Below, one piece after another: positions 19,208 to 33,556 of a stretch of 36,350 nucleotides of DNA. The translations under genes were made by a program, and so were the position numbers. The notes beneath the pieces were generated by a model, which saw only the letters and a list, made by a program, of their open reading frames with translations, was not told the DNA's origin and made no database searches. Position 1 is the stretch's first letter; every line of letters begins with the position of its first letter. This DNA comes from a virus (Duplodnaviria > Caudoviricetes): the IMG/VR virus record IMGVR_UViG_3300014656_000073, positions 1-36,350 of that record. One strand, written 5' to 3'.

Positions 19208-19276
19208 GCTTTCCCGATTTCCCCCCCAATATGTAATATTAAGGAAAGTTTTCCCGATATACCCATGTTATGTGTA

Positions 19277-19471
19277 TCAGAACATTCCTACCTCATGCAT
19301 CACGAAGCAGGTAAACAATGCCAGCGGAACAAATACAAAAAATGATGTTGCGGCACCGACAATCATTTGGTTTCTTTGTGTAACTATAAAATGTTCAATA
19401 AGTTCTGAGGTGTAAAAAATAGCAATTAACATCAATATACCAATTACTGCTCCATAAAAAATAGCAACCAT
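19277..19471 (-). CDS. Small 2-TM membrane protein (cassette cargo)
   Basis: Two hydrophobic segments; bounded by GTTATGTG and CACATAAC on the coding strand. Confidence 0.55.
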   Translation of the reverse strand: MVAIFYGAVIGILMLIAIFYTSELIEHFIVTQRNQMIVGAATSFFVFVPLALFTCFVMHEVGMF

Positions 19472-19482
19472 CCTAAGACCTC

Positions 19483-19568
19483 ACATAACAATTTTATGCA
19501 CTGGACAGGGTGAAGTCCGGCGCGTTTTCTGGCAGGTTTGTGGCCTGCCAGTGATAAAGGCGTTAAAC
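19483..19568 (-). mobile_element. attC-like site A (86 bp)
   Basis: Coding strand GTTTAAC..ATCACTGGCAGG...CCTG(T)CCAGTG(C)AT..GTTATGT; the TAA is the stop of 19563-20090. Confidence 0.8.
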
Positions 19569-20090
19569 CCCGCAACTAATTTCTTGCGCTGATCTGCGCG
19601 TTTTCAGTTTGTTGCACTCAAACTTCCCCGTCATCACAAATATTTCCAAACATAAACCGACCCCTTTGCATAGTTTACAACCATGTGCTAAGTAAAATTT
19701 CCGGTATGCTTTTTTACGATGTGCCTTGTTTGCATCGGATGACCAGGCGGGGGGGCCAATTCTTTTTGGTTCGTATCTCTCTCTAATTTCCGCTTTATAT
19801 AGTCTTTGGTGTTCTTTGCAGCATGTGTTTTGTGTTGATGCTGTCTTTGGTCTGGTAAACAGCTTTCCGCACGCCCTGTATTTGCAAACAACTTTTTTTG
19901 GTGGCTGTAAGGCAGCGTAGGCGTGCTTAACACACCACTTGCACATTATGTCATTGCCTGGGTCGGTTTTGGTTTTATGGAGTGGCGTTACTGCAAAAAC
20001 ACAACACCATGAAGTTTCTTTGCCGTCATCGTGCTGTTTTATTATGTGAGTTACTTTGCCCCTTGTTTCTGTTCGGTAGTATTTCGGCAT
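19563..20090 (-). CDS. Cys-rich hypothetical protein (175 aa)
   Basis: Multiple CxxC/CC clusters. Confidence 0.6.
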   Translation of the reverse strand: MPKYYRTETRGKVTHIIKQHDDGKETSWCCVFAVTPLHKTKTDPGNDIMCKWCVKHAYAALQPPKKVVCKYRACGKLFTRPKTASTQNTCCKEHQRLYKAEIRERYEPKRIGPPAWSSDANKAHRKKAYRKFYLAHGCKLCKGVGLCLEIFVMTGKFECNKLKTRRSAQEISCGV

Positions 20091-20542
20091 TACATACCTC
20101 TTTGGCTAAGTCTGGCTTTGGCATAGTCCTCTTTGGTTGGTCGTGGCATACTCTTGAAGGTTCGTGTTTCGAGTTTTCTTATAAAAGCGGTCACCATTTC
20201 TTTTGTTATTTTGTCAGGAACAGGATCAAGATTTGCATTTACCTTGTGGAGCCGGTCTGTAACTATGCCTATTTTTATTCTCCGGTTTGCATCAAGGCCA
20301 CAAATGTAATAGCCGTTGTCTCGCAGTCCTTTGTATAATTCTGCAATCCACACTCGCTGATCTTCTGATATTTTACTAACCGCCCGTTCATGCTCCTCTG
20401 TTGTGTTGCACTTCCAGATTTTTTCAATGTGCGTCTTGAGCAAGCTGGCGTAAGACCCGACAATATCTTGGGGATTTACGGTTGTTTTAACAAAAGGCGG
20501 CTCTTTTAGATCATCAACAATGTTAAAGTCTGCATCTTTCAT
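20090..20542 (-). CDS. Hypothetical protein (150 aa)
   Basis: ATG immediately after attC-like site B, whose spacer GGAGA supplies the RBS. Confidence 0.6.
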   Translation of the reverse strand: MKDADFNIVDDLKEPPFVKTTVNPQDIVGSYASLLKTHIEKIWKCNTTEEHERAVSKISEDQRVWIAELYKGLRDNGYYICGLDANRRIKIGIVTDRLHKVNANLDPVPDKITKEMVTAFIRKLETRTFKSMPRPTKEDYAKARLSQRGM

Positions 20543-20591
20543 TTTTAACTCTCCGCTGAACCAGACGTAGCTGGTTAGCTAGTTGTTATCT
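20543..20591 (-). mobile_element. attC-like site B (49 bp, copy 1)
   Basis: AGATAAC AACTA GCTAACCAG ctacgt CTGGTT(C)AGC GGAGA GTTAAAA; 46 bp identical to 23178-23223. Confidence 0.8.
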
Positions 20592-20909
20592 ACACCCATG
20601 GCACGTCGAACACTGCCTACATGCTATTTTGAATGGTATTTTGAGGGATGCAAACATAAAATTCATAGCTTTTTCTTGCTCAATAATCGGTTTTTGGTAC
20701 ACTTTTCTTTCCACTACAACTCCGGACGATAGAAAGAATCCCCCCGTTGGGCACGGTTCTTTAAATCTAAAATAGATAAGCATCTTATTCGGACCATGTC
20801 CAGTAGCGTACTCCCTATCTATTATATGCCTACCGTTTTGATGCTGCACCCCTCTACAATGTTGTTTTTTGCCATGGTCGAACCAATGAAAGCACTTTAA
20901 TATTTTCAT
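20586..20909 (-). CDS. Hypothetical protein (107 aa)
   Basis: Stop codon lies in the TAAC box of site B. Confidence 0.55.
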   Translation of the reverse strand: MKILKCFHWFDHGKKQHCRGVQHQNGRHIIDREYATGHGPNKMLIYFRFKEPCPTGGFFLSSGVVVERKVYQKPIIEQEKAMNFMFASLKIPFKIACRQCSTCHGCR

Positions 20910-21019
20910 TTTCCACTCCAGGAGCAGTTAGTACACCACGCTGCTCCAACGTCATTTATTAATAATGGGTGGCCACAAATAGGGCATTTTTCCTTTTTTA
21001 ATACTGATTCGTGTGACAT
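20906..21019 (-). CDS. Small Zn-ribbon protein (37 aa, MSHESVLKKEKCPICG...)
   Basis: CPIC...CTNC; ATG just after attC-like site N. Confidence 0.45.
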   Translation of the reverse strand: MSHESVLKKEKCPICGHPLLINDVGAAWCTNCSWSGK

Positions 21020-21022
21020 AAT

Positions 21023-21110
21023 AGATAACCAAGTTTTCAACCAGACCGCGAGAACGGTTCCGGTTTTTATAGCCGCTATGGTGGCGCGGCAGGTTAAAAC
21101 GGCGTTAGCT
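21023..21110 (-). mobile_element. attC-like site N (88 bp)
   Basis: On +: AGATAAC CAAGT TTT(C)AACC AG(A)CCGCG ... CGCGG CA GGTTAAA ACGGC GTTAGCT. Confidence 0.8.
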
Positions 21111-21111
21111 G

Positions 21112-21255
21112 TCACCAGTTCGGGCCTTTCCAGGAAGTTAAAAACCAGAAGCCGAACAGTGCGAAAAAACACAATGCGACAATGCCAAAACTCCCAAGTA
21201 TCCACAAAAGCCACTTTCCAGTGACAACAGCCCATATCGGTATCGTTATTTCCAT
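21112..21255 (-). CDS. Small membrane protein (47 aa, MEITIPIWAVV...)
   Basis: Not in the track; AGGTG RBS, one long hydrophobic helix, stops right at site N. Confidence 0.55.
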   Translation of the reverse strand: MEITIPIWAVVTGKWLLWILGSFGIVALCFFALFGFWFLTSWKGPNW

Positions 21256-21262
21256 GGTGCAC

Positions 21263-21475
21263 CTAAAAAAGTTTTTGTTGTTTGTTCGGTATAGCCAGTT
21301 TACATTTTTCGAGGATATCTATCTCTGATCTGAGATGTGCAATCATCACCAGGTTTGCTCCATTGCTCCGTTCCCTAGCAAGTTCAAGACAAGTTTGCCT
21401 GATCAAACCATCAAGGTTGTCTTCAGTCAGGATGGTGCATCCACCAGAATGGTAAAATTTATCGCCGATTCTCAT
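21263..21475 (-). CDS. Hypothetical protein (70 aa)
   Basis: Track ORF with GGGGGAAG RBS. Confidence 0.55.
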   Translation of the reverse strand: MRIGDKFYHSGGCTILTEDNLDGLIRQTCLELARERSNGANLVMIAHLRSEIDILEKCKLAIPNKQQKLF

Positions 21476-21476
21476 G

Positions 21477-21749
21477 TCACTTCCCCCTGTCGTTATGAAT
21501 TACAAGTTTCCGACCAGCAACATATTGAACAGAAGGGCAACACCAGCATGTATCAGAATCCATGTGAGCAAGTGGCGAATCACAGACATTGCAACAGACA
21601 GAATATATAGCAGTAAGAACACCTGGGCCGATGTCGTCTATTTTGTCTTTAACTCCTTCTGGCAAAACACTATCTAGCCATGACTCAAATGCCGAATATT
21701 CATCCCACGGAGAGGGATATTCTTTGTTCGTTTCAATCCAAGGTCTCAT
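21477..21749 (-). CDS. Hypothetical protein (90 aa)
   Basis: ATG just after attC-like site C. Confidence 0.55.
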   Translation of the reverse strand: MRPWIETNKEYPSPWDEYSAFESWLDSVLPEGVKDKIDDIGPGVLTAIYSVCCNVCDSPLAHMDSDTCWCCPSVQYVAGRKLVIHNDRGK

Positions 21750-21752
21750 ATC

Positions 21753-21840
21753 AGCTAACCAGTCGTTTCAGGGGAAGCCGTGATCCCCTCGGTTTTATCT
21801 GCAAAGTTCAGGGCGGCTCCCCTGAACTCAATCGTTAGCC
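21753..21840 (-). mobile_element. attC-like site C (88 bp)
   Basis: On +: AGCTAAC-5nt-GTT(T)CAGGGGA(A)GCCG ... CGGCTCCCCTGAAC-6nt-GTTAGCC, the canonical R''-L''...L'-R' spacing. Confidence 0.85.
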
Positions 21841-21841
21841 T

Positions 21842-22129
21842 TCAAGCAGGCATCTCGTTGAACGCTGAACATTCCTCATGTTCTCTTGGGTCGTATTCTT
21901 CCCAATCGCTGCACTCTTTATCTTTTGCCGGCACTCTGTTGTCGATAGGTATTGTGTGGTTTCTCCAATAAAGTTTCGGGACTGTTTTCCCTACTTTATC
22001 GGCATTCAACTCTTGCGAAGACGGGTGCATACAAGCAAGTTCTTCAATGGTGAAAATTTTGGTAGGATCTCCAGTCCTGTAAATTGCCGACCTTACATGG
22101 CATGTTCTTTTTGCTGTTTCGTAATCCAT
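21842..22129 (-). CDS. Hypothetical protein (95 aa, cassette cargo)
   Basis: GAGG RBS; bounded by GTTAGCCTT / AAGGCTAAC. Confidence 0.65.
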   Translation of the reverse strand: MDYETAKRTCHVRSAIYRTGDPTKIFTIEELACMHPSSQELNADKVGKTVPKLYWRNHTIPIDNRVPAKDKECSDWEEYDPREHEECSAFNEMPA

Positions 22130-22142
22130 AATTACCTCAAAA

Positions 22143-22231
22143 GGCTAACCAAACGCTTGAGTGGAAGCGAAGAGGTTAGCGGTTTTTTGTATTTATTTCG
22201 GTGGTGCGCTGGTCACCAACGGCCGTTAAAT
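22143..22231 (-). mobile_element. attC-like site D (89 bp, degenerate/chimeric arms)
   Basis: ATTTAAC (stop of the rep gene)...GTTAGCC; arms pair poorly; interior resembles site Q. Confidence 0.55.
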
Positions 22232-22825
22232 TTTTCCTTCTCTTTGAAGTCGCTCGTACTCTACCTGAAATGCGTCTGGCTCTTCTTGCTTGGTTTGTTC
22301 ACCACCATTTTTTCTTTCCCATGAAAGAATAGTTGCATAATGACTTTTGTATTTTTTCCCATTACTTGCTATGTAAAGTGAAAGTGCATGGATTTTATCG
22401 TCAAGCGTTGAATTAAATTGCTGTTTAAGTTTTTCATATTCTTCTAAAGATAAAAAAACATTCTGGAATTCACCGTAGGTATCTTTCTCTGCTTTTGTCT
22501 CTGCTTTTGTCTCTGCTTTTGGTGGGTCATGGTGACGCCGTGGTGGCGTCATGTTGGCGTCAAGGAAGCCTATGTCTATGAATTTATTAAGATTTGGCTT
22601 TGTTGACATGAAGCAAAGTTTCATTAAAAGGTCTGGGTCGGCAGGAATTTCACCATTTTTATCAGCAGCAAGAAGCCATAAACTTACAAGCTGGCCCCTT
22701 TCTTTATCTGACAACCCAACCCACTTGACGTTCCGCATTATGTTTCTATGTATTTTTATCCAAGGAGGCTGACCACGATCTTTTCTATATGATTGCCAAT
22801 CATCCCAGTTGTGTATCTTTAACAT
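22226..22825 (-). CDS. Phage replication initiator / replisome organizer (199 aa)
   Basis: LKIHNWDDWQSY...PPWIKIHR N-terminal domain, low-complexity repeat linker, C-terminal NVFLSLEEYEKL...KKYKSHYATILSW. Confidence 0.75.
   Translation of the reverse strand: MLKIHNWDDWQSYRKDRGQPPWIKIHRNIMRNVKWVGLSDKERGQLVSLWLLAADKNGEIPADPDLLMKLCFMSTKPNLNKFIDIGFLDANMTPPRRHHDPPKAETKAETKAEKDTYGEFQNVFLSLEEYEKLKQQFNSTLDDKIHALSLYIASNGKKYKSHYATILSWERKNGGEQTKQEEPDAFQVEYERLQREGKI
22486..22562. repeat. Iteron-like repeats inside the replication gene (putative origin)
   Basis: Three tandem TCTCTGCTTTTG (22486-22521), then GGCGTCA/TGACGCC repeats. Confidence 0.5.
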
Positions 22826-22835
22826 TTATAGCACC

Positions 22836-22920
22836 AAAAAAAATGGCTCTAAGCACTGACGACTGATAAGGAAGCTTCCAACTCCCCCGCCCCGAAAGGC
22901 ATCGCCAGTGCTTAGAGCCA
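22836..22920 (-). ncRNA. Structured leader RNA with terminator upstream of the replication gene
   Basis: 19-bp closing stem TGGCTCTAAGCACTGGCGA/TCGTCAGTGCTTAGAGCCA enclosing small hairpins, followed by T8. Confidence 0.6.
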
Positions 22921-22966
22921 CACTGTTTGATCGAACAACTTGGAAGTTTAGTTTTATCATGTAATA

Positions 22967-22995
22967 ACCATATCATTTAATCAATTTGGTGTCAA
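22967..22995 (-). promoter_or_regulatory. Sigma70-type promoter
   Basis: TTGACA-17nt-TATGGT on the minus strand, upstream of the leader RNA. Confidence 0.6.
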
Positions 22996-23158
22996 ATTTT
23001 TTCTTGTAGTTCCTGGGGTTATCAATTATTGTTTTTATTGTTTCACCAAGCAGCCTATCTGGTACAAAAATGGTTCTTTTTAAAGATCCACACCTTCCGC
23101 ACCACTCTATTTTTGTACCAGTAAGCCTTGCCCATTTATGTTTGCAGTATGTCGCCAT
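22973..23158 (-). CDS. Hypothetical protein (61 aa)
   Basis: CKH.W...WCGRCG; G-rich RBS. Confidence 0.55.
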   Translation of the reverse strand: MATYCKHKWARLTGTKIEWCGRCGSLKRTIFVPDRLLGETIKTIIDNPRNYKKKFDTKLIK

Positions 23159-23176
23159 TTCACCCCCCCCTGTTTG

Positions 23177-23225
23177 GTTTAACTCTCCGCTGAACCAGAC
23201 GTAGCTGGTTAGCTAGTTGTTATGC
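23177..23225 (-). mobile_element. attC-like site B2 (49 bp, copy 2 of B)
   Basis: Core identical to 20544-20589. Confidence 0.8.
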
Positions 23226-23480
23226 TTAAAAGCCCATAGCCCTGTCAAAATCGGCAATCGCTCCGGCAGGTGTCTCCGCAAAACCGGCAATGCCTTCTTG
23301 CAAATTTTCACCAAGCAGTACACACCATTGGTCGCCGTCTTTGTACGGCACAAGCCCGTATATAACAGCCCACATTCCCCGGCGTTTTTCAGTTGCTAGG
23401 GCTTGTTCTGCTGCATTAGTAGACATATGGGCGGCATTCCATTGTTCGTTTAATATCCCTTGTTCACTAGCATAACTCAT
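23226..23480 (-). CDS. Phage hypothetical protein (84 aa)
   Basis: KDGDQWCVLLGENLQEGIAGFAETP motif; GGGAGG RBS. Confidence 0.65.
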   Translation of the reverse strand: MSYASEQGILNEQWNAAHMSTNAAEQALATEKRRGMWAVIYGLVPYKDGDQWCVLLGENLQEGIAGFAETPAGAIADFDRAMGF

Positions 23481-23755
23481 AATGATTCCTCCCTAATAGC
23501 TTCAAAATATAGTTGAAAAAGTGCCACCATTGCCTCATCCGTAATCGCAATTTTTGTTTCTTTCACTTCACTAGCGCCGACGAGCATTTTAAATTTTATT
23601 GCCCATGTCCCGTCGTGTAGTTTTGCCAAACATACTCGTCGATTTTTAAGTTTTATCATTTTACCTGAAATAGCATAACAAGCCGCTGCACGTGGAACAC
23701 AAGGGGCGGCGGTTATTGGTCTATCCTCTGTCAGTGTTTCCGGTATTTCAATCAT
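23477..23755 (-). CDS. Hypothetical fusion protein (92 aa); first 26 aa encoded inside site E
   Basis: N-terminus identical to that of 32481-32747. Confidence 0.6.
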   Translation of the reverse strand: MIEIPETLTEDRPITAAPCVPRAAACYAISGKMIKLKNRRVCLAKLHDGTWAIKFKMLVGASEVKETKIAITDEAMVALFQLYFEAIREESL

Positions 23756-23795
23756 GGTTCAGTCTCCCTTGTGTCCAGTGAGCTAATCGTTATGC
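23673..23795 (-). mobile_element. attC-like site E (123 bp) carrying RBS, ATG and a 26-codon leader
   Basis: GCATAAC..GCTCACTGGACACAAGGG...CCCTTGTGT(T)CCA(C)GTG(C)AGC..GTTATGC; near-identical copy at 32441-32563. Confidence 0.85.
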
Positions 23796-23972
23796 GCCGC
23801 CAAACTTCAAGATCGCGACCCAAACAAGCATTGCAATACTGTGAAGCAATCCAAATGTGTCGGCACCAACTGAGTTTTTTACAACGCGTGGATGCTCACA
23901 CAAAAGGAATATCGACCTCAAGATCACACCGAGGCACCCCACCCAGAAAGAAAAAGTAATGTACGTCTCCAT
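23790..23972 (-). CDS. Small 2-TM membrane protein (60 aa, cassette cargo)
   Basis: GGAGG RBS before METYIT; stop lies in the TAAC of site E. Confidence 0.6.
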   Translation of the reverse strand: METYITFSFWVGCLGVILRSIFLLCEHPRVVKNSVGADTFGLLHSIAMLVWVAILKFGGA

Positions 23973-23987
23973 TTGCACCTCCTTACG

Positions 23988-24116
23988 GCATAACAAGGTT
24001 TTTCAAGGCCGGCTGGGTTGAAGCTCCGCTGTTCGATTCGGCTATCTCGGCTTTTCGTTTTTCAGATGTTTTCATGTCTTTTCTCCCCTTGGGTCAAGTG
24101 ACCTCAATCGTTATGA
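23988..24116 (-). mobile_element. attC-like site F (129 bp, non-matching arms) containing a 30-aa ORF at 23983-24075
   Basis: TCATAAC GATTGA GGTCACT...GGAG-ATG...CCTTGAAA AACCTT GTTATGC. Confidence 0.6.
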
Positions 24117-24120
24117 TTCT

Positions 24121-24309
24121 CTACCAATGTATATGGTCAAGGCTTCCTGTTCCCTCACTTCCTGCATTGCTTTCGTGCCTCTTCATATTTGATCTGTGGC
24201 ATCTTGGCACTCCTTTTTCAGTCCCATATTTTGTTGTTCGGCATTGCTCACAAATAAAAACAACCTTTGTCAAGTCCTCACCAGTTCTTTCTTTCCTGTT
24301 CAAGTCCAT
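24121..24309 (-). CDS. Hypothetical protein (62 aa)
   Basis: GGGAG RBS; CxxC. Confidence 0.5.
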   Translation of the reverse strand: MDLNRKERTGEDLTKVVFICEQCRTTKYGTEKGVPRCHRSNMKRHESNAGSEGTGSLDHIHW

Positions 24310-24312
24310 TTG

Positions 24313-24594
24313 CTACTCCCATTCTTGAATTTTTCCGCATTGCCAGCACATAATGTTATGGCTTATGCCACTTATTGTAAAAAGGTGGCACCCGCATTTA
24401 CATTCCCAATAAACTTCAGGCACTACCCCATATTTTAAGACACCCTTCATGGTTTTACATTCAGGGCATTCTAGTTCTTCAAAAACCTCAACCTCCGTCA
24501 CCGCCACCCACTCGTGCTTACACGCCGCACATATCGCCTGTCCGGTCAAGTGCGGGTGGTTTTTTTCGTTCTCCATTGGTATTATTGTACCCAT
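24313..24594 (-). CDS. Zn-ribbon hypothetical protein (93 aa)
   Basis: CAACKHEW...LECPEC...WECKCG...CWQCG; AAGGAG RBS. Confidence 0.65.
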   Translation of the reverse strand: MGTIIPMENEKNHPHLTGQAICAACKHEWVAVTEVEVFEELECPECKTMKGVLKYGVVPEVYWECKCGCHLFTISGISHNIMCWQCGKIQEWE

Positions 24595-24614
24595 AGCAAC
24601 TCCTTAAAAAAATA

Positions 24615-24667
24615 TCATAACAAAACATTCCAGCGGACAGCTTTGCCGCCTGAATTTAGCGTTATCT
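24615..24667 (-). mobile_element. attC-like site G (53 bp)
   Basis: On +: TCATAAC AAAAC ATT(C)CAGCGG(A)CA gctt TGCCGC-C-TGAAT TTAGC GTTATCT. Confidence 0.8.
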
Positions 24668-24889
24668 GCCATAGTAAATTAGTCTTTTAGCGTGGTGTAA
24701 AGCAAGCCTACAATGTCTTGCAACTTCTGCCCTATCTTCTCTACTAATGTCAAGGCTTCCAATAGGGTATTCAGCTCTTTTAATTTCACCCTCAAGCCAC
24801 TCTTTAAATGCCGTGGCAGATAACCCGTCAATTAAGCGGGATTCGCTAGGCAATAGTTCCGGCTCTATGTTGTGCGTTTTTTCGGTCAT
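24662..24889 (-). CDS. Hypothetical protein (75 aa) containing an internal attC half-site (about 24814-24850)
   Basis: PSESRLIDGLSA encoded by CCTAGCGAATCCCGCTTAATTGACGGGTTATCTGCCA. Confidence 0.55.
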   Translation of the reverse strand: MTEKTHNIEPELLPSESRLIDGLSATAFKEWLEGEIKRAEYPIGSLDISREDRAEVARHCRLALHHAKRLIYYGR

Positions 24890-24890
24890 T

Positions 24891-25124: not shown

Positions 25125-25394
25125 TTATTTTTCTTTTTCCATTTCTTCTAAAATCCGGTCGTATTGCTCTTGCATAGCAGGAAGCTCAAAGGACAACGCA
25201 CCATAAATAGCAAGAAACGATCTTTTGTCATCGTAGTTATCAAGCCAACAAAGATGACCTTTACACCAAAAATCACCCATTCCGGCAAACAACCAACTAA
25301 AGGAATTAATCTTTTCTTTTAGTCGTTTCGCCTCTGCCTCTAGGTCTCTTCTGCACTCTTTTGCACTACCAACGATCATGTTTCTGTCGTACAT
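25125..25394 (-). CDS. Hypothetical protein (89 aa)
   Basis: GGAG RBS; coupled in the operon. Confidence 0.55.
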   Translation of the reverse strand: MYDRNMIVGSAKECRRDLEAEAKRLKEKINSFSWLFAGMGDFWCKGHLCWLDNYDDKRSFLAIYGALSFELPAMQEQYDRILEEMEKEK

Positions 25395-25916: not shown

Positions 25917-26219
25917 TTATGCGTAGTCGCAAAGGCGTGTCTCGCCATAGCCACCCGTGTGTAGTTCTCGGTAGTCAACATCCTTAACGAAACCTTTCGT
26001 AACAAGCCAAGGCATGTATTCTATGTTTTCGTTTTTGTAATCTCTTTCCACCACTCCGTTTTTAATGCTCCGCCCTGTCTCACTACACCAAACATTAAGC
26101 TGTTCTATTGCGTCAAAATCGTTCAGAACTTCAAACAACCCATTTACACAGTAGTCGCTATACTCACCAGTAGACACAGTAACCAATTCACCTTTTTTAA
26201 ATCCGCTTATTTCATCCAT
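25917..26219 (-). CDS. Hypothetical protein (100 aa, cassette cargo)
   Basis: AGGAG RBS; STGEYSDY motif; bounded by GTTATGCG / CGCATAAC. Confidence 0.65.
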   Translation of the reverse strand: MDEISGFKKGELVTVSTGEYSDYCVNGLFEVLNDFDAIEQLNVWCSETGRSIKNGVVERDYKNENIEYMPWLVTKGFVKDVDYRELHTGGYGETRLCDYA

Positions 26220-26245
26220 GTTAGTCTCCTCTTATATTTGTAATC

Positions 26246-26329: not shown

Positions 26330-26530
26330 CCTCCACACCTCAACAGTGTCACCATATTCCCTCGTCGTTACCTCGATGTTGTTTAGTCGTGCAAATCGGT
26401 AAGCACATCGTTTTATAGAGGCCCGCTTTTTCTTCATGCGTGACCTGAAAACAGCAGGATCATAGCTATCAAGCAAACCTGAAAAATCATATTTCTTTGA
26501 TCTGCCACTTCCTTTTTTTGGTATTCCCAT
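26324..26530 (-). CDS. Small basic putative DNA-binding protein, first gene of the leftward early arm (68 aa)
   Basis: AAGGAG upstream; very basic; KKYDFS...VEVWRV. Confidence 0.5.
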   Translation of the reverse strand: MGIPKKGSGRSKKYDFSGLLDSYDPAVFRSRMKKKRASIKRCAYRFARLNNIEVTTREYGDTVEVWRV

Positions 26531-26556
26531 AATAAAATTTTTCTCCTTTACAGTTC

Positions 26557-26655
26557 AATATAATTGATTTACAAATAAAGTCAAACAAAAAAAGATTTAT
26601 TGTTAAAAATAAAAGTGAAAATAAACTTGACAAGATAAACCGAATGTTCTAACGT
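26557..26655. promoter_or_regulatory. Divergent sigma70-like promoters of the early arms
   Basis: Minus: TTGACT(26584-26579)-16nt-TATATT. Plus: TTGACA(26627-26632)-17nt-TAACGT. AT-rich intergenic region where gene orientation switches. Confidence 0.55.
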
Positions 26656-26744
26656 GAAATCTAAAGGTATTGCTTTTGCTTATTAATTTAATAATCAGAG
26701 GGTGCCGAAATGTAACAGCCGGAGAAAGACCGGCAGAATAATTG

Positions 26745-26935
26745 GGGGCTGTGGCGGAATTGCATACGCTGCCCTGACTGCACTTGAGGTGAATTGGTCG
26801 GGCTTGTCGGTGATAACACCGGCTGTTAATCCTCTTTCTTGTTAGTGAGTCCAAAGGGTAATGACAAGGCTTACCACACTAATATTGAAACGATTAATGG
26901 GTTTTCCATTGCGGGTTCGAGTCCTGCCAGCCCCA
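26745..26935 (+). ncRNA. tRNA-like RNA (class II/Leu-like frame) with a large insert in place of the anticodon arm
   Basis: Acceptor GGGGCTG/CAGCCCC-A, D arm GCG-GAATTGCATA-CGC, variable arm ATGG/CCAT, T arm GCGGG-TTCGAGT-CCTGC; 191 nt; no assignable anticodon. Confidence 0.7.
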
Positions 26936-26970
26936 AACATTGAATGGACAAAGAGACTAACAGGGGGGAA

Positions 26971-27221: not shown

Positions 27222-27542
27222 ATGGAACATAGATGCGAATATTGCCGAGGAGGAAGTGGAGGACCATGCACATGCAAGACCGCCAACCTCAGCAATTCTG
27301 CTGTAATGCCTGGTTATGTTACATACGATGTGCAAATTAAATGCCCACACTGCGACAAAGAATTACACCTAAACCAGTATCCATATAACGATGACACGAC
27401 AGATTACGGCGACACCGATGATGTTGTTGGGATGATGCTATTCGGTGGGCCGTCAGAACCAGCAAAATGGGAGAATCTTTCCGTACCTATAAAATGTTGC
27501 GGGTGTAAAAAAGTTTTTAAACTGGGTAGTTTTCAAACATAA
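27222..27542 (+). CDS. Cys-rich hypothetical protein (106 aa) with an internal attC half-site ending at 27313-27320
   Basis: AGGAG RBS; internal GTTATGTT is complementary to terminal AACATAAC. Confidence 0.6.
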   Translation: MEHRCEYCRGGSGGPCTCKTANLSNSAVMPGYVTYDVQIKCPHCDKELHLNQYPYNDDTTDYGDTDDVVGMMLFGGPSEPAKWENLSVPIKCCGCKKVFKLGSFQT

Positions 27543-27590
27543 CAACCCAGTTCAAGAGAGCAACGCTTCTCTTGCAACGAAAAGTTAAAA
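27537..27590 (+). mobile_element. attC-like site L (54 bp)
   Basis: ACATAAC-6nt-GTTCAAGAGAG caacg CT(T)CTCTTG(C)AAC-5nt-GTTAAAA. Confidence 0.85.
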
Positions 27591-27601
27591 GGAGGAACAA
27601 T

Positions 27602-27838
27602 ATGCTAGAGATTACAAGTCCAGGGTATGAAGATTTGACAGACGAAGAAAGGTCGGATGTGTCTGACAACGGTAGTGGTAAGGAATGGGCAGGGTACATA
27701 AAAGTCACTCACAATGGAAAAACGATCCTTCTTGAATCTGACGCAATGGAGCCAGAAGATGCTTCTTTCGGGCGTGATCTAGGGTGGGTCTACGATATAA
27801 TAATGAGGGCCTACGAATTAGGTAAGAAGGATGCATAA
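27602..27838 (+). CDS. Hypothetical protein (78 aa, cassette cargo)
   Basis: AAGGAGG RBS; SDAMEPEDASFGRDL motif. Confidence 0.65.
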   Translation: MLEITSPGYEDLTDEERSDVSDNGSGKEWAGYIKVTHNGKTILLESDAMEPEDASFGRDLGWVYDIIMRAYELGKKDA

Positions 27839-27872
27839 CGCTTCTCTTGCAACGAAAAGTTAAAAGGAGGAA
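27833..27872 (+). repeat. Truncated copy of site L (site M); 36-bp direct repeat 27562-27597 = 27837-27872
   Basis: AACGCTTCTCTTGCAACGAAAAGTTAAAAGGAGGAA occurs twice. Confidence 0.85.
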
Positions 27873-27874
27873 AC

Positions 27875-28159
27875 ATGATGTTAGCAAAAGAACCTGTCTG
27901 GATAGCTGAATGTGGCAAGTGTTTTGATGTTCTTGAAATACCTCTAGTGAAAAAAGAAGATGGCCTCTGGTATGATGGAGAAGTTGACACCTTCCTTGAA
28001 GAAGAGGGTTGGAAATTCACAGATTATGAGCGTGGGGTGGTTGTTTGTGGTGGTTGCCACGAAGCAAGGCGGCAAGAGATTGAAACTGAGGACATTATCA
28101 GGGAAAACAGGGTAGAAATGCCAAGGGGTTATTCTTTTGGACAAGTTGGTTTTTATTAA
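27875..28159 (+). CDS. Hypothetical protein (94 aa)
   Basis: AAGGAGG RBS; CxxC...GW...CxxC. Confidence 0.65.
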   Translation: MMLAKEPVWIAECGKCFDVLEIPLVKKEDGLWYDGEVDTFLEEEGWKFTDYERGVVVCGGCHEARRQEIETEDIIRENRVEMPRGYSFGQVGFY

Positions 28160-28285
28160 CCTAAAACTAAGGGGTGAGCGATTATGAGTGACGCATATTG
28201 CCCAAGATGTAAGGGTAGAGATGATGATTGTTGGATGTGTAATAAGCCCGAGCCTAGCGAATCCAACTTGAGTGCTGCGTTATGC
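28154..28285 (+). mobile_element. attC-like site O (132 bp; loop carries the start and N-terminus of 28184-28426)
   Basis: TATTAAC..ACTAAG...CTT(G)AGT-5nt-GTTATGC; inner stem imperfect. Confidence 0.6.
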
Positions 28286-28426
28286 TGTAAAGACGATGCT
28301 CAATGCAAAGACTGTGAACATGCTTGGCACAATTTAGGGATTGCCTCATTAAGCGAAAATACTTGGTGCTATATGTATCTAAAGAAAATGACGTGTTGTA
28401 AAAAACATAAAAGAAAAACAGCATAA
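28184..28426 (+). CDS. Cys-rich hypothetical fusion protein (80 aa)
   Basis: Reads through the right arm of site O (PSESNLSAALC). Confidence 0.6.
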   Translation: MSDAYCPRCKGRDDDCWMCNKPEPSESNLSAALCCKDDAQCKDCEHAWHNLGIASLSENTWCYMYLKKMTCCKKHKRKTA

Positions 28427-28581
28427 CGACCAAGCTCAAGGGCAAAAGCCCAACGGGAGAAACTAGATGCCTGAATATCTGTGTGTAGAGATATGTCTAA
28501 AGGAGAAGATATGAAAACAATAGAAGAAATAGTACAAGCACACCAGCAGCGTAGCTGTCTGAGTGCAGCGCTTGGTTAGCG
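28421..28581 (+). mobile_element. attC-like site P (161 bp, partly mismatched arms; 22-aa ORF 28511-28579 in loop)
   Basis: GCATAAC GACCAA GCTCA...GTG(C)AGC GCTTG GTTAGCG; TAACGACCAAGCTCA shared with site T. Confidence 0.65.
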
Positions 28582-28609
28582 GATTTAATTAAATTAAGGA
28601 GGTTATGGT

Positions 28610-28813
28610 ATGTCTGAAATATTGCTTACACTATGTTCATTAACAATGGCACTGAGTGTATATTTTCTATTTACGGTAGTTCGATCACTCCAAGAAACAT
28701 GGATAAGGATGGAGACCTTGGTTGAAACGTATTTAGATTTTTTTATGAAAAACTTTAATTCAGAATCTGTCTCCGGTGGTATTGTAAATGATGGTTCTAA
28801 AACCCTTGAATAA
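28610..28813 (+). CDS. Single-TM membrane protein (67 aa)
   Basis: AAGGAGG upstream; N-terminal hydrophobic helix. Confidence 0.55.
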   Translation: MSEILLTLCSLTMALSVYFLFTVVRSLQETWIRMETLVETYLDFFMKNFNSESVSGGIVNDGSKTLE

Positions 28814-28943
28814 TGAGACGATGGGATTTCTACGCCAACATTTATTCTTGGATAGAACCAATAGAATTAATCTTAGAACATCTAAACCTAGAGCTTAATT
28901 ATGAACCAGCACGTGAGCCAGAAACAACCCTGAAGGAGAACAA

Positions 28944-29195
28944 ATGATTACATACAAATCATGTACAAAACCAGCATCAAGCAGAGAGGATATAATTTTC
29001 AACGGCAAGAAAATCGGTGATATGGATATTATCGATGGCAAATACCGAGCGCACATCTGGTTTGACGATGTAACAACCGACTGTTTCGGGTATGGAATTC
29101 ATAAAGAGGGGGCCATTGAAAATGCTATTCTAAAAGGTACATCAGACGCAATTACATTAATAGCAAACCTTGACGCACTTGTGGGGGAATTATGA
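28944..29195 (+). CDS. Hypothetical protein (83 aa)
   Basis: AAGGAG RBS. Confidence 0.6.
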   Translation: MITYKSCTKPASSREDIIFNGKKIGDMDIIDGKYRAHIWFDDVTTDCFGYGIHKEGAIENAILKGTSDAITLIANLDALVGEL

Positions 29196-29380
29196 GCATG
29201 TACGTTAAGCGAGGAGGAGAGGGGCACATTGACTCTGACTTTGTAGAAGTATGGGAAGTGCCAGACGGCTCTGCAATCGACCAGGAGGATGACAAGGGGC
29301 TGCTTGAGGCTTACGAAAATGGCGAGATATGCAGAGAGGATATGATTAACGAACTTGGATTCAAGGAGGAGGATTTATAG
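29192..29380 (+). CDS. Acidic hypothetical protein (62 aa)
   Basis: ATGA-coupled; Asp/Glu-rich. Confidence 0.55.
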   Translation: MSMYVKRGGEGHIDSDFVEVWEVPDGSAIDQEDDKGLLEAYENGEICREDMINELGFKEEDL

Positions 29381-30037
29381 ATGAGTGAAGCAAAAGATGA
29401 TATGGTTGATGTGCCAGCCGTGACCCTCAACATATACCAACGGATAAACGAAGTAAGAAAGAAAATATCTTATCTTAAAAAAGATGCAACGGTCACGGGG
29501 TATAAGGCGGTAACTCACGACCACGTTACGGCATCAATCCGTGACCACCTTGTTACGTTTGGAATAGTTATTGTCCCAAGGCAAACATCTTGGGAAACAG
29601 CCGACACAGGCAAAGCAACAAGCAAGGGGACACCATATACTCGATTTGAGGGAGATTATGAGTTTGATGTGGTAAATGTGGATGACCCCAAAGATATGTT
29701 TACAGGTAAAGTCCATGCCCACGCAGAAGATCAGGGTGATAAGGGGCCAGGGAAAGCAATTAGCTATGCGCTCAAGGCTTTTGAATTAAAGTTGTTCAAT
29801 ATTGAGTCCGGAGAAGATGATGAGGAACGACCAGAACAGGAGCTTGTAAAGCTAAGTGACGAGCAGATTATTACACTTCGGGAAATGTGCGAAGGATATG
29901 ATTGGCCCGTTGACGAAACACTCGAAAGGCTTGCAAAAACATACGGGCTAACAAAAATAGTTGACCTGCCAGAAACTCACTTTAAAAACTGTATTGCTAG
30001 AATGGAAGCACAATATGCTAAACAAGCAGAGAAGTAA
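29381..30037 (+). CDS. erf: ERF-family single-strand annealing protein (218 aa)
   Basis: NIYQRINEVRK...LKKD...DQGDKGPGKAISYALK..ELKLFNI (ERF signature). Confidence 0.85.
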   Translation: MSEAKDDMVDVPAVTLNIYQRINEVRKKISYLKKDATVTGYKAVTHDHVTASIRDHLVTFGIVIVPRQTSWETADTGKATSKGTPYTRFEGDYEFDVVNVDDPKDMFTGKVHAHAEDQGDKGPGKAISYALKAFELKLFNIESGEDDEERPEQELVKLSDEQIITLREMCEGYDWPVDETLERLAKTYGLTKIVDLPETHFKNCIARMEAQYAKQAEK

Positions 30038-30617
30038 TGGGTGGCACGAACAACGAAAAGCCAGAATAACAGCTAGTCGTCTTGGTGACGTTCTTGCAGG
30101 TATAAAAACAAAACGATTTAATGGATATATTCAAGATATTGTTTTGTCAATGCTCGGTGCCCCAACATTCCAAGATGATAAGCCGTGGTTTCAACATGGT
30201 GTTGATTGGGAACCAGAAGCAATAGCCCTATATGAATGGGAAACAGGAAACACTGTTGCTGAATCTGGGTTTATTGTGCATCCAGATTATGATTTTATAG
30301 GTTGCTCTCCAGACGGCATAATAACTGGCGGTGGTGTAGAGGCAAAAAGCAGGAAGTCCCTCACCGGCCACCTGAAAAGCGAAAAGGCAGGAATAGATAC
30401 AGTATACATGCCACAGGTTCAAGGGTCAATGTGGATAACGGGCTCATTGTTTTGGGACTTTATCTCATACTATAAAAACAACAACGGTAAAACGCTGTTA
30501 CACATACACAGAGTTAACCGTGATGATAAATATATTAAAAACCTTGAGGAACGATGTCTAATGTTTTGGGCTATGGTTCAAAACGAACTAAAACAAAGGA
30601 GAAGAAATGATAAATAA
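30015..30617 (+). CDS. YqaJ/lambda-exonuclease family nuclease (200 aa)
   Basis: QRS..W...R...ITAS, G...EPEA, GCSPDG, EAK and Y.PQVQG.MWITG motifs; likely ATG start at 30015. Confidence 0.9.
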   Translation: MLNKQRSNGWHEQRKARITASRLGDVLAGIKTKRFNGYIQDIVLSMLGAPTFQDDKPWFQHGVDWEPEAIALYEWETGNTVAESGFIVHPDYDFIGCSPDGIITGGGVEAKSRKSLTGHLKSEKAGIDTVYMPQVQGSMWITGSLFWDFISYYKNNNGKTLLHIHRVNRDDKYIKNLEERCLMFWAMVQNELKQRRRNDK

Positions 30618-31014
30618 AGCAATCATCATAGGCAATCTTGGCAAAGACCCTGAAGTACGTTACTCACAGACAGGTGGGGCAATAGCCTCTTTCTCTATTG
30701 CAACCACCGAAACTTGGAAGAAGCAGGATGGCACCAAAGAAGAAAAAACAGAATGGCACAAGATAGTTGCTTTCGGTAGGCTTGCAGAAATCTGCGGAGA
30801 ATATCTTTCCAAAGGAAGCAAGGTTTATCTTGAAGGCAAGATTCAAACAAGAAAGTGGGAGAATAAAGACGGTGTAACACAATACACCACAGAGATTGTG
30901 GCGCGAGAGATGAAGATGCTTACCCAAAGAAACGGAGAGGCAGGAAGCAGCGACAGGGCAAACCAAAACGAGGAGCCACCGTTCCCTGAAATGGACGATT
31001 CGGTTCCATTTTAA
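30607..31014 (+). CDS. ssb: Single-stranded DNA-binding protein (135 aa)
   Basis: NKAIIIGNLGKDPEVRY...TEWH...KGSKVYLEG; acidic tail DDSVPF. Confidence 0.97.
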   Translation: MINKAIIIGNLGKDPEVRYSQTGGAIASFSIATTETWKKQDGTKEEKTEWHKIVAFGRLAEICGEYLSKGSKVYLEGKIQTRKWENKDGVTQYTTEIVAREMKMLTQRNGEAGSSDRANQNEEPPFPEMDDSVPF

Positions 31015-31018
31015 TACC

Positions 31019-31112
31019 TTATAACGCACATAATCACCAGCGGCACCACCGAAGAAATACACGGATAGTGCCGCCACCGTTCGCTCCGTCTGCGTGAATT
31101 TAATTGTTAAGT
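31019..31112 (+). mobile_element. attC-like site Q (94 bp)
   Basis: TTATAAC-6nt-AATCACCAGCGG...CCG(T)CTG(C)GTG(A)ATT-5nt-GTTAAGT. Confidence 0.8.
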
Positions 31113-31127
31113 TTCTGGAGGTGGGTA

Positions 31128-31340
31128 ATGGCTGACATAATAGAATTTGATGATCTTGGAAACTACCGAGGGTGTTTACAAATAACTAAAGGTGATGGGA
31201 AGTTTTTTGCCCGTGTTGACTGCGACCTTAATTATGGAACGGATCATGAAACGGATTGGGAAGATATACCACAATACCTGTTTGATGCTTTGACCAAATA
31301 TGCCAATGGCGTAGATACTACTAAAATATCTGAAACTTAA
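31128..31340 (+). CDS. Hypothetical protein (70 aa, cassette cargo)
   Basis: GGAGG RBS; bounded by GTTAAGTTTC / GAAACTTAAC. Confidence 0.65.
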   Translation: MADIIEFDDLGNYRGCLQITKGDGKFFARVDCDLNYGTDHETDWEDIPQYLFDALTKYANGVDTTKISET

Positions 31341-31394
31341 CGCCAGAACTCAGCCCGCAGGCGTTAGCCTGTCGGCTGTAGTGATTTGTTAAAC
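31335..31394 (+). mobile_element. attC-like site R (60 bp)
   Basis: ACTTAAC GCCAGA ACTCAGC CCGCAGGC gtta GCCTGTCG GCTG(T)AGT GATTT GTTAAAC; same layout as the bottom strand of short aadA-type attC sites. Confidence 0.9.
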
Positions 31395-31417
31395 GAAATT
31401 GCACGAAAGGAGATAAA

Positions 31418-31741
31418 ATGCACTGGATATATGCGCACTTGATCGGAGACTATTTAATCCAAAATGACTGGATGGCGAAAGGGAAGAAAACATCCTCTTT
31501 TATTTGCTTTGTCCACACCGTGACCTACTTGTTTCCATTCCTCTTTTGCAGCCTTGAGTGGTGGCAGATTATGGCCATCGGGGCGCAACACTTCGCACAA
31601 GATAGAACTGGAGTAATTGTGTGGATGCTTAATGCAACCGGCAAAGGTGGCTTTGCAAAACCACCAATGGCCCCTTGGAGCATTATAGTAACTGACAACG
31701 TAATCCATATTTTATTTATGGCTTGGATCGTGTCCGTTTAA
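31418..31741 (+). CDS. DUF3307-family membrane protein (107 aa, cassette cargo)
   Basis: AHLIGDYLIQNDWMA..K...H...Y...HF.QDR...DNVIH. Confidence 0.75.
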   Translation: MHWIYAHLIGDYLIQNDWMAKGKKTSSFICFVHTVTYLFPFLFCSLEWWQIMAIGAQHFAQDRTGVIVWMLNATGKGGFAKPPMAPWSIIVTDNVIHILFMAWIVSV

Positions 31742-31924
31742 CGCAAAGCTAACCAGACCAATGGGAAAAGGAGAAAATTAATGGCTACTTTATGCAGAGA
31801 TTGCGCCGACACAACATGCCCACATTTTGACAGTGTGCATTTGGGCGGATTAAAATGTTTTAAAAAGAAAACAGACACCACCGAACTGCGCCACATTGGG
31901 TCTGAGTTGAGCGAATTGTTAGAA
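31736..31924 (+). mobile_element. attC-like site S (189 bp; loop carries RBS and N-terminus of 31781-32089)
   Basis: GTTTAAC..GCTAACCAGACCAATG...CATTG(G)GTCTG(A)GTT(G)AGC GAATT GTTAGAA. Confidence 0.8.
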
Positions 31925-32089
31925 CGATCTAGGTCACTACTTTCCTGGATAAATGAAAAGGCAACAAAGGCCGATAGCCTGTCAAAAAGCGTGGCCATAA
32001 GCGAGAAAGACAGATTATTCAACTTAGGTCGTGCTGTTGCCTTTGCCGAAGATTACACGCAACTTAAAGAAATTATTGATACGTTCTAA
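31781..32089 (+). CDS. Hypothetical fusion protein (102 aa): Cys-rich leader from site S plus helical cargo
   Basis: AAGGAG RBS inside site S; reads through its right arm (HIGSELSELL). Confidence 0.6.
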   Translation: MATLCRDCADTTCPHFDSVHLGGLKCFKKKTDTTELRHIGSELSELLERSRSLLSWINEKATKADSLSKSVAISEKDRLFNLGRAVAFAEDYTQLKEIIDTF

Positions 32090-32266
32090 CGACCAAGCTC
32101 ACCGGCTGGCGTAAAGGAGGAACTAAATGGCAAAAATACATAAACTTCCAGAGAAAGAAAAAATTAAGCACACCAAAGAATCACGAGCGTGGGAAAAAAT
32201 AGAAAAAAACATTGATGCCCAACAACCCAGCGAGGACGCCAGTCCGAGTGAAGCGAATTGTTCGGT
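32084..32266 (+). mobile_element. attC-like site T (183 bp; loop carries RBS and ORF start)
   Basis: TTCTAAC GACCAA GCTCACCGGCTGGCGT...ACGCCAG(T)CCG(A)GTG(A)AGC GAATT GTTCGGT. Confidence 0.8.
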
Positions 32267-32297
32267 TACAAAAGAGGATGTTGCCCTTGGGAGATAA
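32127..32297 (+). CDS. Small ORF starting inside site T (56 aa, MAKIHKLPEK...)
   Basis: Not in the track; AAGGAGG RBS; stops shortly after the GTT box. Confidence 0.5.
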   Translation: MAKIHKLPEKEKIKHTKESRAWEKIEKNIDAQQPSEDASPSEANCSVTKEDVALGR

Positions 32298-32446
32298 AAA
32301 AATACTTGTGCGTGGTTTGCGGGGAACTACACGAAGAAACTGAGCAATGCGCTAAGTGCGGTGAACGTTACTGCTCTGACTGGTGCGGTGGATGGGAAGA
32401 CCAAGAGCATACTTGCAAAAATTGTAGCAAGGTTGATGGAATCTAA
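32258..32446 (+). CDS. Cys-rich (Zn-finger-like) ORF, start uncertain
   Basis: Four CxxC-type pairs; stop lies in the TAAC of site E2; only a TTG start inside site T. Confidence 0.4.
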   Translation: MFGYKRGCCPWEIKKYLCVVCGELHEETEQCAKCGERYCSDWCGGWEDQEHTCKNCSKVDGI

Positions 32447-32563
32447 CGATTAGCTCACTGGACACAAGGGAGACGAAACTATGATTGAAATACCGGAAAC
32501 ACTGACAGAGGATAGACCAATAACCGCCGCCCCTTGTGTTCCACGTGCAGCGGCTTGTTGTGT
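32441..32563 (+). mobile_element. attC-like site E2 (123 bp, copy of E)
   Basis: 113/116 nt identical to the reverse complement of E between TAAC and GTT. Confidence 0.85.
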
Positions 32564-32747
32564 GATTGTTGAGGGGAAGTTTTATTCCGGCGGGTATACC
32601 ATCTGCGTTTGCAAAACAAAGAAAATTGCTGTGAAGAAGTGTCGGGATGATGGCTTTTCATATTGTCGTAAGGATGATTTGTGGAATGGAGAGCATCACG
32701 GGGACTCTTATTATCGCAGAATTGAGAGAGAAGATTTTTACACATAA
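32481..32747 (+). CDS. Hypothetical fusion protein (88 aa); first 26 aa encoded inside site E2
   Basis: Same leader as 23477-23755 but an unrelated C-terminal part. Confidence 0.6.
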   Translation: MIEIPETLTEDRPITAAPCVPRAAACCVIVEGKFYSGGYTICVCKTKKIAVKKCRDDGFSYCRKDDLWNGEHHGDSYYRRIEREDFYT

Positions 32748-32828
32748 CGATTTTTAATAAGTGGTGCGCCCGTGAATAACCAGCATGAGCGCAGAGGTGT
32801 TCGCATCCACTTAATTTACTGGTTATGC
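32742..32828 (+). mobile_element. attC-like site U (87 bp)
   Basis: ACATAAC..AATAAGTGGTGCG...CGCA(T)CCACTTA(A)TT TACTG GTTATGC. Confidence 0.8.
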
Positions 32829-32839
32829 GAGGATTTAAA

Positions 32840-33100
32840 ATGGAAAACGGAAATTTTGGACAAGCACTGGAAGAGATGAAATCCGGACGTAAATGCTGGC
32901 GTAAAGGGTGGAATGGTAAGGGGATTACAATTGAGCTGCAAAACCCTGACGAAAATAGCAAGATGACAAGCCCCTACATTTTTATTGATACCACCGGACT
33001 GCAAACCGACAACGATGCTGCGCCAAAAAGCTGTGTGCCTTGGCTGGCCTCCCAGACTGATATGCTTGCCGAAGATTGGTACTCTGACAGAGTATATTAA
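32840..33100 (+). CDS. DUF2829 protein (Tad2-like anti-defence nucleotide sponge family, 86 aa)
   Basis: NFGQALEEMKSG.K..RKGWNGKG...PYIFI...VPWLASQTDMLAEDW; ATG at 32840 after GAGGA. Confidence 0.85.
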   Translation: MENGNFGQALEEMKSGRKCWRKGWNGKGITIELQNPDENSKMTSPYIFIDTTGLQTDNDAAPKSCVPWLASQTDMLAEDWYSDRVY

Positions 33101-33129
33101 CTGCCTAAAATGCGCCGCCTACATGGGGC

Positions 33130-33319
33130 GCATAACGCCAGAATTGAGGAGCCTTGGGCTTAAAGGAGAAAGTAGATGAGAACATGTAGGGGGTGTGTGA
33201 ATATACCGAACTTTTGCATTGGCGAGAAAGATGGTGGAGCCGAGAAGGATTGTTATGTGGGACTTACCGAAGCCACCGCACAACCAAGCCCAAGGTCTGT
33301 CTCAGATGCTTTGATATGT
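33130..33319 (+). mobile_element. attC-like site V (190 bp; GTT box reads GAT; loop carries RBS and N-terminus of 33176-33478)
   Basis: GCATAAC GCCAGA ATTGAG..GCCTTGGGCTT...AAGCCCAAGG(T)C..CTCA(G)AT GCTTT GATATGT. Confidence 0.7.
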
Positions 33320-33478
33320 GATGTGGAGGTGGGAAGCGAGGAAACACTTTCGGGATGGAAGCAACCTTATGTTTCCTTGAGAATTGGCAACTTTGAGTTT
33401 AAGAGACTTTACCAGACTAAAAACGGTGCTGAGAGATGTGTGGCTAAAGTTAAAGAGCTTTTAACTGCCAGCACATAA
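33176..33478 (+). CDS. Hypothetical fusion protein (100 aa)
   Basis: AAGGAG RBS in site V; ends in CACATAAC. Confidence 0.6.
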   Translation: MRTCRGCVNIPNFCIGEKDGGAEKDCYVGLTEATAQPSPRSVSDALICDVEVGSEETLSGWKQPYVSLRIGNFEFKRLYQTKNGAERCVAKVKELLTAST

Positions 33479-33556
33479 CACCGAGCTAACCTGCCTATTT
33501 GTCGTGCACTTTTCTGGTAATTTGATAGACAAAGATACTTAGCGTGAAGCTGTTAC

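Follow-up and report, generated by a model that had tools for sequence, protein, structure and literature searches.

Hairpins of the attC type precede early genes of a groundwater phage contig and probably form reversed cassettes with them

Integron cassettes carry attC sites with AAC and GTT boxes and paired arms (PMC2727003, PMC5027507). On the bottom, recombining strand, the arm opposite AAC carries the unpaired bases (PMC5027507) and the cut falls between A and C (PMC2727003, PMC5027507). Matched cassette ends form a paired R box in the circle (PMC2727003), over 9-11 bases for most cassettes in print (PMC2727003, PMC5027507). The IMG/VR record IMGVR_UViG_3300014656_000073, a linear phage contig of 36,350 nucleotides analysed here over its whole length (the window), resembles them: early genes are preceded by hairpins with AAC and GTT boxes, paired arms, extra bases opposite AAC, an apparent cut between A and C and end pairing beyond 7 bases. 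These sites are identified here as integron attC cassettes, an identity left unnamed by the initial annotation of the stretch. The window departs from integron cassettes in that its genes lie on the bottom strand with the site before the gene, the contig has no intI match, the sites span 33-189 bases and eight genes read through the GTT end.

Clusters of attC sites lacking integron integrases (CALINs) have been described in phage genomes (PMC9892861), and five of six phage attC sites tested recombined with IntI1 (PMC9892861, Qi et al. 2023). The window shares with them attC clusters without an integrase, but the non-integron phages of that study have 2-4 sites and the window about 24, in two divergent arms; the CALIN of phage TJE1 is canonical, whereas the window is reversed. 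The accessible text of PMC9892861 does not discuss gene strand relative to attC strand, including for MW202573; its figure may show it. In our literature search, outside which subscription papers largely lay, phage CALINs were found only in that source and no description of the reversed build was found.

The integrase also inserts cassettes at GWT (attG) sites, and genes inserted there can be expressed from resident promoters (bioRxiv 2022.09.11.507474). The coding-strand TAA/C of the window (the slash marks the crossover) is a GWT site on the other strand; the published insertions concern bacterial chromosomes and ordinary cassettes and show no transcription-direction bias, whereas both arms of the window follow transcription. 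With ORF-11 of attI1 and short open reading frames (ORFs) in attC, too, a recombination site supplies the next gene with translation signals (PMC8876359). There the effect is mostly translational coupling at a fixed attI, whereas in the window in-frame leaders of 21-45 residues cross the GTT of mobile sites.

In the window, 25 full or half sites were marked by visual inspection, following an initial scan for matches of at least 7 bases: 13 in the plus arm and 12 positions in the minus arm, one of them split into two halves. These gave 22 two-armed sites plus half-sites, and 23 cargo units. AAC and GTT boxes are present in 22/22 two-armed sites by definition, with flanks looser than RYYY/RRRY, as in a Vibrio control. 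The inner arms pair after a spacer of 5-6 bases, and 15 of the 22 sites pair well (score at least 18). In all 15 the unpaired bases occupy the right arm of the coding strand, opposite AAC. A symmetric detector placed the extra bases on the same side in both arms; on shuffled sequence it gave 3 left and 2 right, with 0-2 sites per shuffle against 12 in the real sequence. In the control arrays the extra bases were found on the left arm of the array plus strand, in 11/14 sites of a Vibrio integron (locus L081) and 3/3 sites of the TJE1 array. Because the extra bases lie opposite the coding-strand AAC in 15/15 sites, the coding strand corresponds to the bottom strand of attC, and relative to ordinary cassettes the genes run backwards. 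Folding energy picks no strand, the coding strand being the more stable in 13/21.

By the usual classes the region is a CALIN (at least two attC within 3 kb and no integrase, by our own detector and hand annotation). A complete integron (intI with attI and Pc) was not recognised: the contig, possibly incomplete, has no intI match, and attI and Pc were not searched. The units of the window also lack the order of an ordinary cassette, in which the gene occupies the top strand and its attC comes after it.

We consider it probable that the window holds about two dozen attC-type hairpins whose coding strand is the bottom strand, the unit being a hairpin with the gene or genes downstream of it, and that a host integron integrase works them in trans at AA/C. 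The reversed, two-arm, integrase-free build would then be ordinary integron chemistry with backwards genes, and that polarity is what is unusual. The initial annotation had proposed both the unit and the crossover at AA/C of the coding strand from the complementarity of cassette ends. The unit is supported by the side of the extra bases (15/15), the breakpoints against a relative and the array ends; the crossover is supported by structure, breakpoints and array ends, not by the complementarity itself.

That complementarity proved accurate on re-check. The six end pairs originally quoted were exact in place and length: 31106/31341 (10 bases), 31388/31742 (8), 31918/32090 (9), 28279/28427 (10), 24824/24661 (11) and 22149/21834 (9). 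Between the GTT end of a cargo unit and its far AAC end, at least 7 bases match in 16/23 units, at least 8 in 15/23 and at least 9 in 5/23. The two ends of one linear site match less well, as had been claimed: at least 8 bases in 0/22, with a mean of 4.5. In the permutation test that the initial annotation had suggested, true partners had a mean run of 7.26 and shuffled partners 4.70, and 0/200,000 permutations reached the true value. Match positions 5-8 agree in 18-21 of 23 true partners against 32-39% of wrong partners; positions 9-14 are at chance (3-8/23), so the signal ends at base 8 and matches of 9-11 bases need no separate explanation. One cross-match of 8 bases, 23183/19562, does not exceed chance. 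When sites were called automatically in another phage contig (G001:C16, below), 7/12 units reached 8 bases, and 0/50,000 permutations equalled this. Bacterial controls behaved alike, with at least 8 bases in 8/10 units of the Vibrio integron and in 12/15 units of three bacterial arrays, the pairing extending over 8-11 bases.

The end matching is real and far beyond chance, but it is known integron cassette anatomy. It cannot tell to which side of a gene a site belongs: the match is identical for a gene before or after the site, and for this reason it cannot alone carry the model of site plus downstream gene.

The sites and units of the window are as follows (L, minus strand; R, plus strand; match lengths refer to the ends of the unit).

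19268-19562, minus: L11, reversed cassette; C of AAC at 19562 to G of GTT at 19489, then a 64-aa gene; 8-base match, extra bases on the right arm; it ends at a bare TAA/C at 19267, the left end of the array, with no further site.
19563-20585, minus: L10; site 20585-20549, identical to L6, then genes of 150 and 175 aa; 6-base match; likely a resident phage block.
20586-21104, minus: L9, reversed cassette; site 21104-21029 and cargo; 8-base match; skipped in relative X2 (joint 20565/22224).
21105-21834, minus: L8, reversed cassette; site 21834-21759 and two genes; 8-base match; skipped in X2.
21835-22225, minus: L7, cassette; site 22225-22149 with poorly pairing arms and a 95-aa gene; 9-base match; skipped in X2; it starts at the stop codon of the replication gene.
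22226-23219, minus: L6; site 23219-23183, then a block with the replication gene (22226-22825); 6-base match.
23220-23789, minus: L5, reversed cassette; site 23789-23679 with the start codon in the loop; a leader of 25 residues reads across GTT into the cargo; 8-base match.
23790-24110, minus: L4, cassette; site 24110-23994 with unpaired arms, and cargo; 7-base match.
24111-24661, minus: L3, reversed cassette; site 24661-24621 and two genes; 8-base match.
24662-24889, minus: half-site unit; a 75-aa gene across a half-site that retains only the right arm, with GTT at 24824; 11-base match.
25917-26323, minus: L1, reversed cassette; site 26323-26252 and a 100-aa gene; 8-base match, extra G and T on the right arm; it runs from the stop codon of the first leftward gene to a bare TAA/C at 25916, before ninB.
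26531-26943, no strand: AT-rich gap from which the two arms diverge (ORF map); likely a control region.
27222-27542, plus: half-site unit; a 106-aa gene across a right-arm half-site, GTT at 27313; 8-base match; replaced in X2 up to 27537.
27543-28159, plus: R1/R2; R1 at 27543-27584, a 78-aa gene, the truncated copy R2 at 27839-27859 and a 94-aa gene; matches of 4 and 5 bases.
28160-28426, plus: R3; a left part that does not pair, followed by a start codon with leader, the right arm with GTT at 28279, and cargo; 10-base match.
28427-31024, plus: R4; site 28427-28575 with mismatched arms, then resident genes for an Erf-like annealing protein, an exonuclease and Ssb; ends unmatched.
31025-31340, plus: R5, reversed cassette; site 31025-31106 and a 70-aa gene; 10-base match; common to X2 from 31020.
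31341-31741, plus: R6, reversed cassette; site 31341-31388 and a 107-aa gene; 8-base match; the X2 block ends at 31743.
31742-32089, plus: R7, reversed cassette; 189-base site, with a 45-residue leader from the loop through GTT at 31918; 9-base match.
32090-32446, plus: R8; site 32090-32260 with a leader in the loop; ends unmatched; in X2 the site and its downstream flank are kept and the upstream gene is changed.
32447-32747, plus: R9, reversed cassette; site 32447-32557 with a leader; end match broken at position 4.
32748-33135, plus: R10, reversed cassette; site 32748-32822 and an 86-aa gene; 8-base match; one homolog is a reversed cassette at locus L006.
33136-33478, plus: R11; site 33136-33252 with unpaired arms and a leader that crosses GTT; 8-base match.
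33479-33554, plus: R12, terminal site; weakly paired, its GTT end adjoining the stop codon of the converging late gene (33557); no 8-base partner within the window.

A 36-base direct repeat (27562-27597 and 27837-27872) flanks the 78-aa gene, and its second copy starts at an AAC inside the R1 loop, which suggests a crossover at a secondary AAC; in a contig of run X4 this gene is absent and R1 is joined straight to the 94-aa gene. The GTT flank of R12 (33552-33562) is antisense to the stop region of the late gene. Two substitutions seen in an X2 contig would pair the end of the gene at 27875 (28150-28160) with that flank over 11 bases, possibly by chance.

The relative X2 and run X4 were compared as assembled contigs, and the counts of joints are those of the joints listed. 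X2 is a run from another study in which about half of the sampled words are common with the window. One of its contigs matches 31020-31743 (724 bases) with 1 difference, from TAAC to TAAC; this block holds two units and both its flanks diverge. At least eight listed breakpoints fall at most 6 bases from a site AAC: 31020, 31743, 19271/31739, 22224, 27537, 27840/32093, 32087 and 32445, the 27840 joint having only 24 bases on one side. One listed breakpoint is at GTT (31921). The X2 joint between 22224 and 20565 leaves out three cassettes and retains the right arm of L10 with its downstream gene, and two X4 contigs also begin at TAAC (27540 and 23223). No circular back-joint was present among the joints listed in contigs of four runs, a result that is uninformative on rare circles.

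These joints bear on a first alternative, that the units entered as reversed cassettes long ago and are now shuffled independently of an integrase, by the Erf-like protein, the exonuclease, NinB or hairpin slippage via short homologies. The genes for the Erf-like protein, exonuclease and NinB are on the contig, half-sites and mismatched arms are common, and loss of attC by slippage has been described (bioRxiv 2022.09.11.507474). Moreover, six of the 12 listed X2 joints lie away from sites, two of them replacing a whole gene without a site, so that other routes of mosaicism operate as well. However, the breakpoints at sites cluster on TAAC, with 3-7 shared bases, and not within the longer shared arms, and the extra bases are kept on one arm in 15/15 sites. 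We regard present-day shuffling of this kind as rather unlikely to account for the arrays. In X2 the genes 25125-25394 and 22973-23158 are replaced at or near borders that lack a hairpin site at both ends, which reads as site-independent gene swapping.

A second alternative is that a recombinase encoded in a missing part of the phage, or a host enzyme other than IntI, works the sites. The contig is rated 50% complete and both its ends are open late genes; on it, neither an integron integrase nor another tyrosine recombinase was detected (no TIGR02249 or PF00589 match). Two further phage records, G004 and G006, are rated 100% complete and carry reversed sites, yet have no PF00589 match. The same arm motif is also present in bacterial cassette arrays, which are ordinary in polarity, and its presence there counts against the alternative too. 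We judge this alternative unlikely.

The comparison with other phages rests on six contigs found through a cargo homolog or arm motifs, neither of which selects gene strand. Automatic calls gave 17 reversed, 2 canonical and 22 uncalled sites in these contigs, and 21 canonical, 7 reversed and 30 uncalled in six bacterial-type arrays; among phage sites with an 8-base partner, 14 were reversed and 1 canonical. The polarity calls are noisy and sites within one genome are not independent. Automatic calls for TJE1 were 2 reversed, 1 canonical and 1 open, but by its annotation and three array sites it is canonical; in the Vibrio array, three sites received low-scoring reversed calls. Locus L135, where the pattern lies within a gene, was excluded from the polarity count.

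The contig G001:C16 (loci L152/L153), a 36-kb phage contig binned in a Sulfurovum metagenome-assembled genome, has about 15 reversed sites in the same two-arm layout. Several of them share one leader family before different genes, and the cargo includes DNA methyltransferase-like genes (named from the look of the sequence only). G001 has IntI on another contig, but binning does not prove the host; the sites of that contig have no clear similarity to the phage contig, which leaves such a host link for C16 unsupported. Locus L006 has three reversed units with matches of 10-11 bases, read by eye. In the published phage CALIN of MW202573 (locus L166, 2075-3732) the three detected sites are reversed relative to the annotated genes, and on P12002L the detector did not recover the sites.

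Other searches yielded little. A query with the Erf-like protein in viral contigs found 1 distant locus, with no array noticed, and the single metagenome scan, with NinB, returned only the window's own contig (L002). An exact site pattern had 0 matches; a degenerate pattern matched 50 loci, of which 46 represent a single conserved coding stretch and 2 are real sites (L118, L122). For the gene at 32840, the flanks of 40 of 78 homologs were read and only L006 was a cassette; at score 24 the detector found no site beside the gene in the 78 homologs, L006 being missed by it.

A third alternative keeps ordinary cassettes, each a gene with the site downstream of it and a crossover at G/TT of the coding strand. 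The end matching is identical under either reading, stop codons overlap TAAC, and three site families change partner at GTT. The sites R9 and L5 are identical in 106/109 inner bases and have the same leader but different cargo; the L6 and L10 sites are identical before different genes; and arms of the R7 type appear again in G001:C16 and X2, where they enclose another loop and precede other cargo. This arrangement is nevertheless very unlikely: the extra bases are on the wrong arm in 15/15 sites, listed breaks of shared blocks number 8 at TAAC against 1 at GTT, and the matched cassettes that stop at the bare TAA/C of 25916 and 19267 (both left-arm arrays ending in a matched cassette) would be left without a site of their own, L1 having no upstream partner above 6 bases within the window. 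Exchanges at GTT could result from top-strand recombination, homologous exchange or the process that makes cassettes; top-strand recombination of attC is possible but much rarer in print (PMC5027507). That the matches reflect only chance or a shared consensus is scarcely credible: all ends share GTT/AAC and 11/506 wrong pairs reached 8 bases, but none of the 200,000 permutations equalled the true partners and the signal was repeated with automatic calling in G001:C16.

Several observations weigh against units of hairpin and downstream gene worked by a host integrase, in addition to the X2 joints away from sites. The near-identical sites before different genes show that site and downstream gene are not always inherited together. 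Seven of the 22 sites are truncated or chimeric, and their arms pair too weakly to be scored. G occupies the first unpaired position in only 2/15 sites, and T is among the extra bases in 14/15; a G-to-C change had a minor effect (PMC2727003). Site length is inside the published range of 57-141 bases in 14/22, shorter in 5 and longer in 3. Lastly, 8/23 units have no 8-base match: 27584>27839 (4 bases), 27859>28160 (5), 28575>31025 (4), 32260>32447 (3), 32557>32748 (3, then one mismatch), 23994>23789 (7), 23183>22225 (6) and 20549>19562 (6). Three of these span resident genes (Erf-exonuclease-Ssb, the replication gene and the 20542-19563 pair). Two flank the 36-base duplication, one is the 7-base match, the unit from 32260 is unexplained and that from 32557 likely carries a single substitution, to judge from three homologs that read C-Y-V at the R9 junction where the window reads C-C-V (protein comparison only).

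The leaders accompany the GTT ends. Eight genes start upstream of the GTT end and are read across it with leaders of 21-45 residues. Four leaders before a GTT read-through (27222, 28184, 31781 and 33176) are cysteine-rich, with CxxC motifs.

The setting of the arrays is that of a phage early region. The window DNA occurs in runs of groundwater metagenomes, with no RNA data set among those listed. A PHROGs scan of 55 proteins identified a terminase, portal, major head protein, replication protein, NinB, HNH nucleases, an Erf-like protein, an exonuclease and Ssb. According to the ORF map, an AT-rich gap at about 26530-26940 separates two arms in which the small early genes point away from it. 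Rfam and tRNA scans of the window were empty, and a promoter scan of the gap (26531-26943) gave 3 sites against 1.7 expected, which is not informative. The leader of the rightward arm contains, at 26713-26828, about 95 bases flanked by a perfect 10-base inverted repeat (TAACAGCCGG ... CCGGCTGTTA); the element has no Rfam match and might represent a structured leader RNA or a site that has decayed. Inside the replication gene, three copies of the short tandem repeat AAAAGCAGAG (about 22480-22520, minus strand) are possibly origin iterons. Replication direction was rejected, by inference, as the cause of site orientation, which is the same to either side of the replication gene but opposite in the two arms. 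On the right, a 585-aa late gene (33557-35314) with a signal-peptide-like start and without a PHROGs match converges on the array.

If reversed cassettes are indeed worked from the host, a host IntI would most likely act in trans on the folded coding strand, cut at AA/C and release a circle whose R box is paired. The first cassette to arrive would enter a genomic, attG-like TAA/C, often at a stop codon; in the window, the TAA is the stop codon of the upstream gene in 17/24 junctions, one further junction lacking its ORF in the list used. With insertion at a stop-codon TAA/C, the resident gene would survive and the newcomer would join the operon in sense. Later cassettes would enter at existing sites, which would decay to half-sites and chimeras, and an occasional exchange at the GTT end may put a loop-encoded leader before a new gene body. 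Selection for expression would explain why both arms are oriented along transcription.

Polarity matters here: integrons are understood as placing promoterless genes before their attC, and the arms of the window are built the opposite way. Across phages, this polarity points to a phage-specific cassette pool with natural leader shuffling, and to a site-specific route of mosaicism that needs no phage recombinase. We suggest only tentatively that phages maintain a cassette pool of their own, built in reverse: early genes would sit behind attC hairpins, which insert on operon stop codons, bring start signals with them and exchange leaders at the opposite hairpin end. If this is true, host integron integrases would rank among the main drivers of mosaicism in phages that lack an integrase, and cassette formation could be watched in the early regions of phages.

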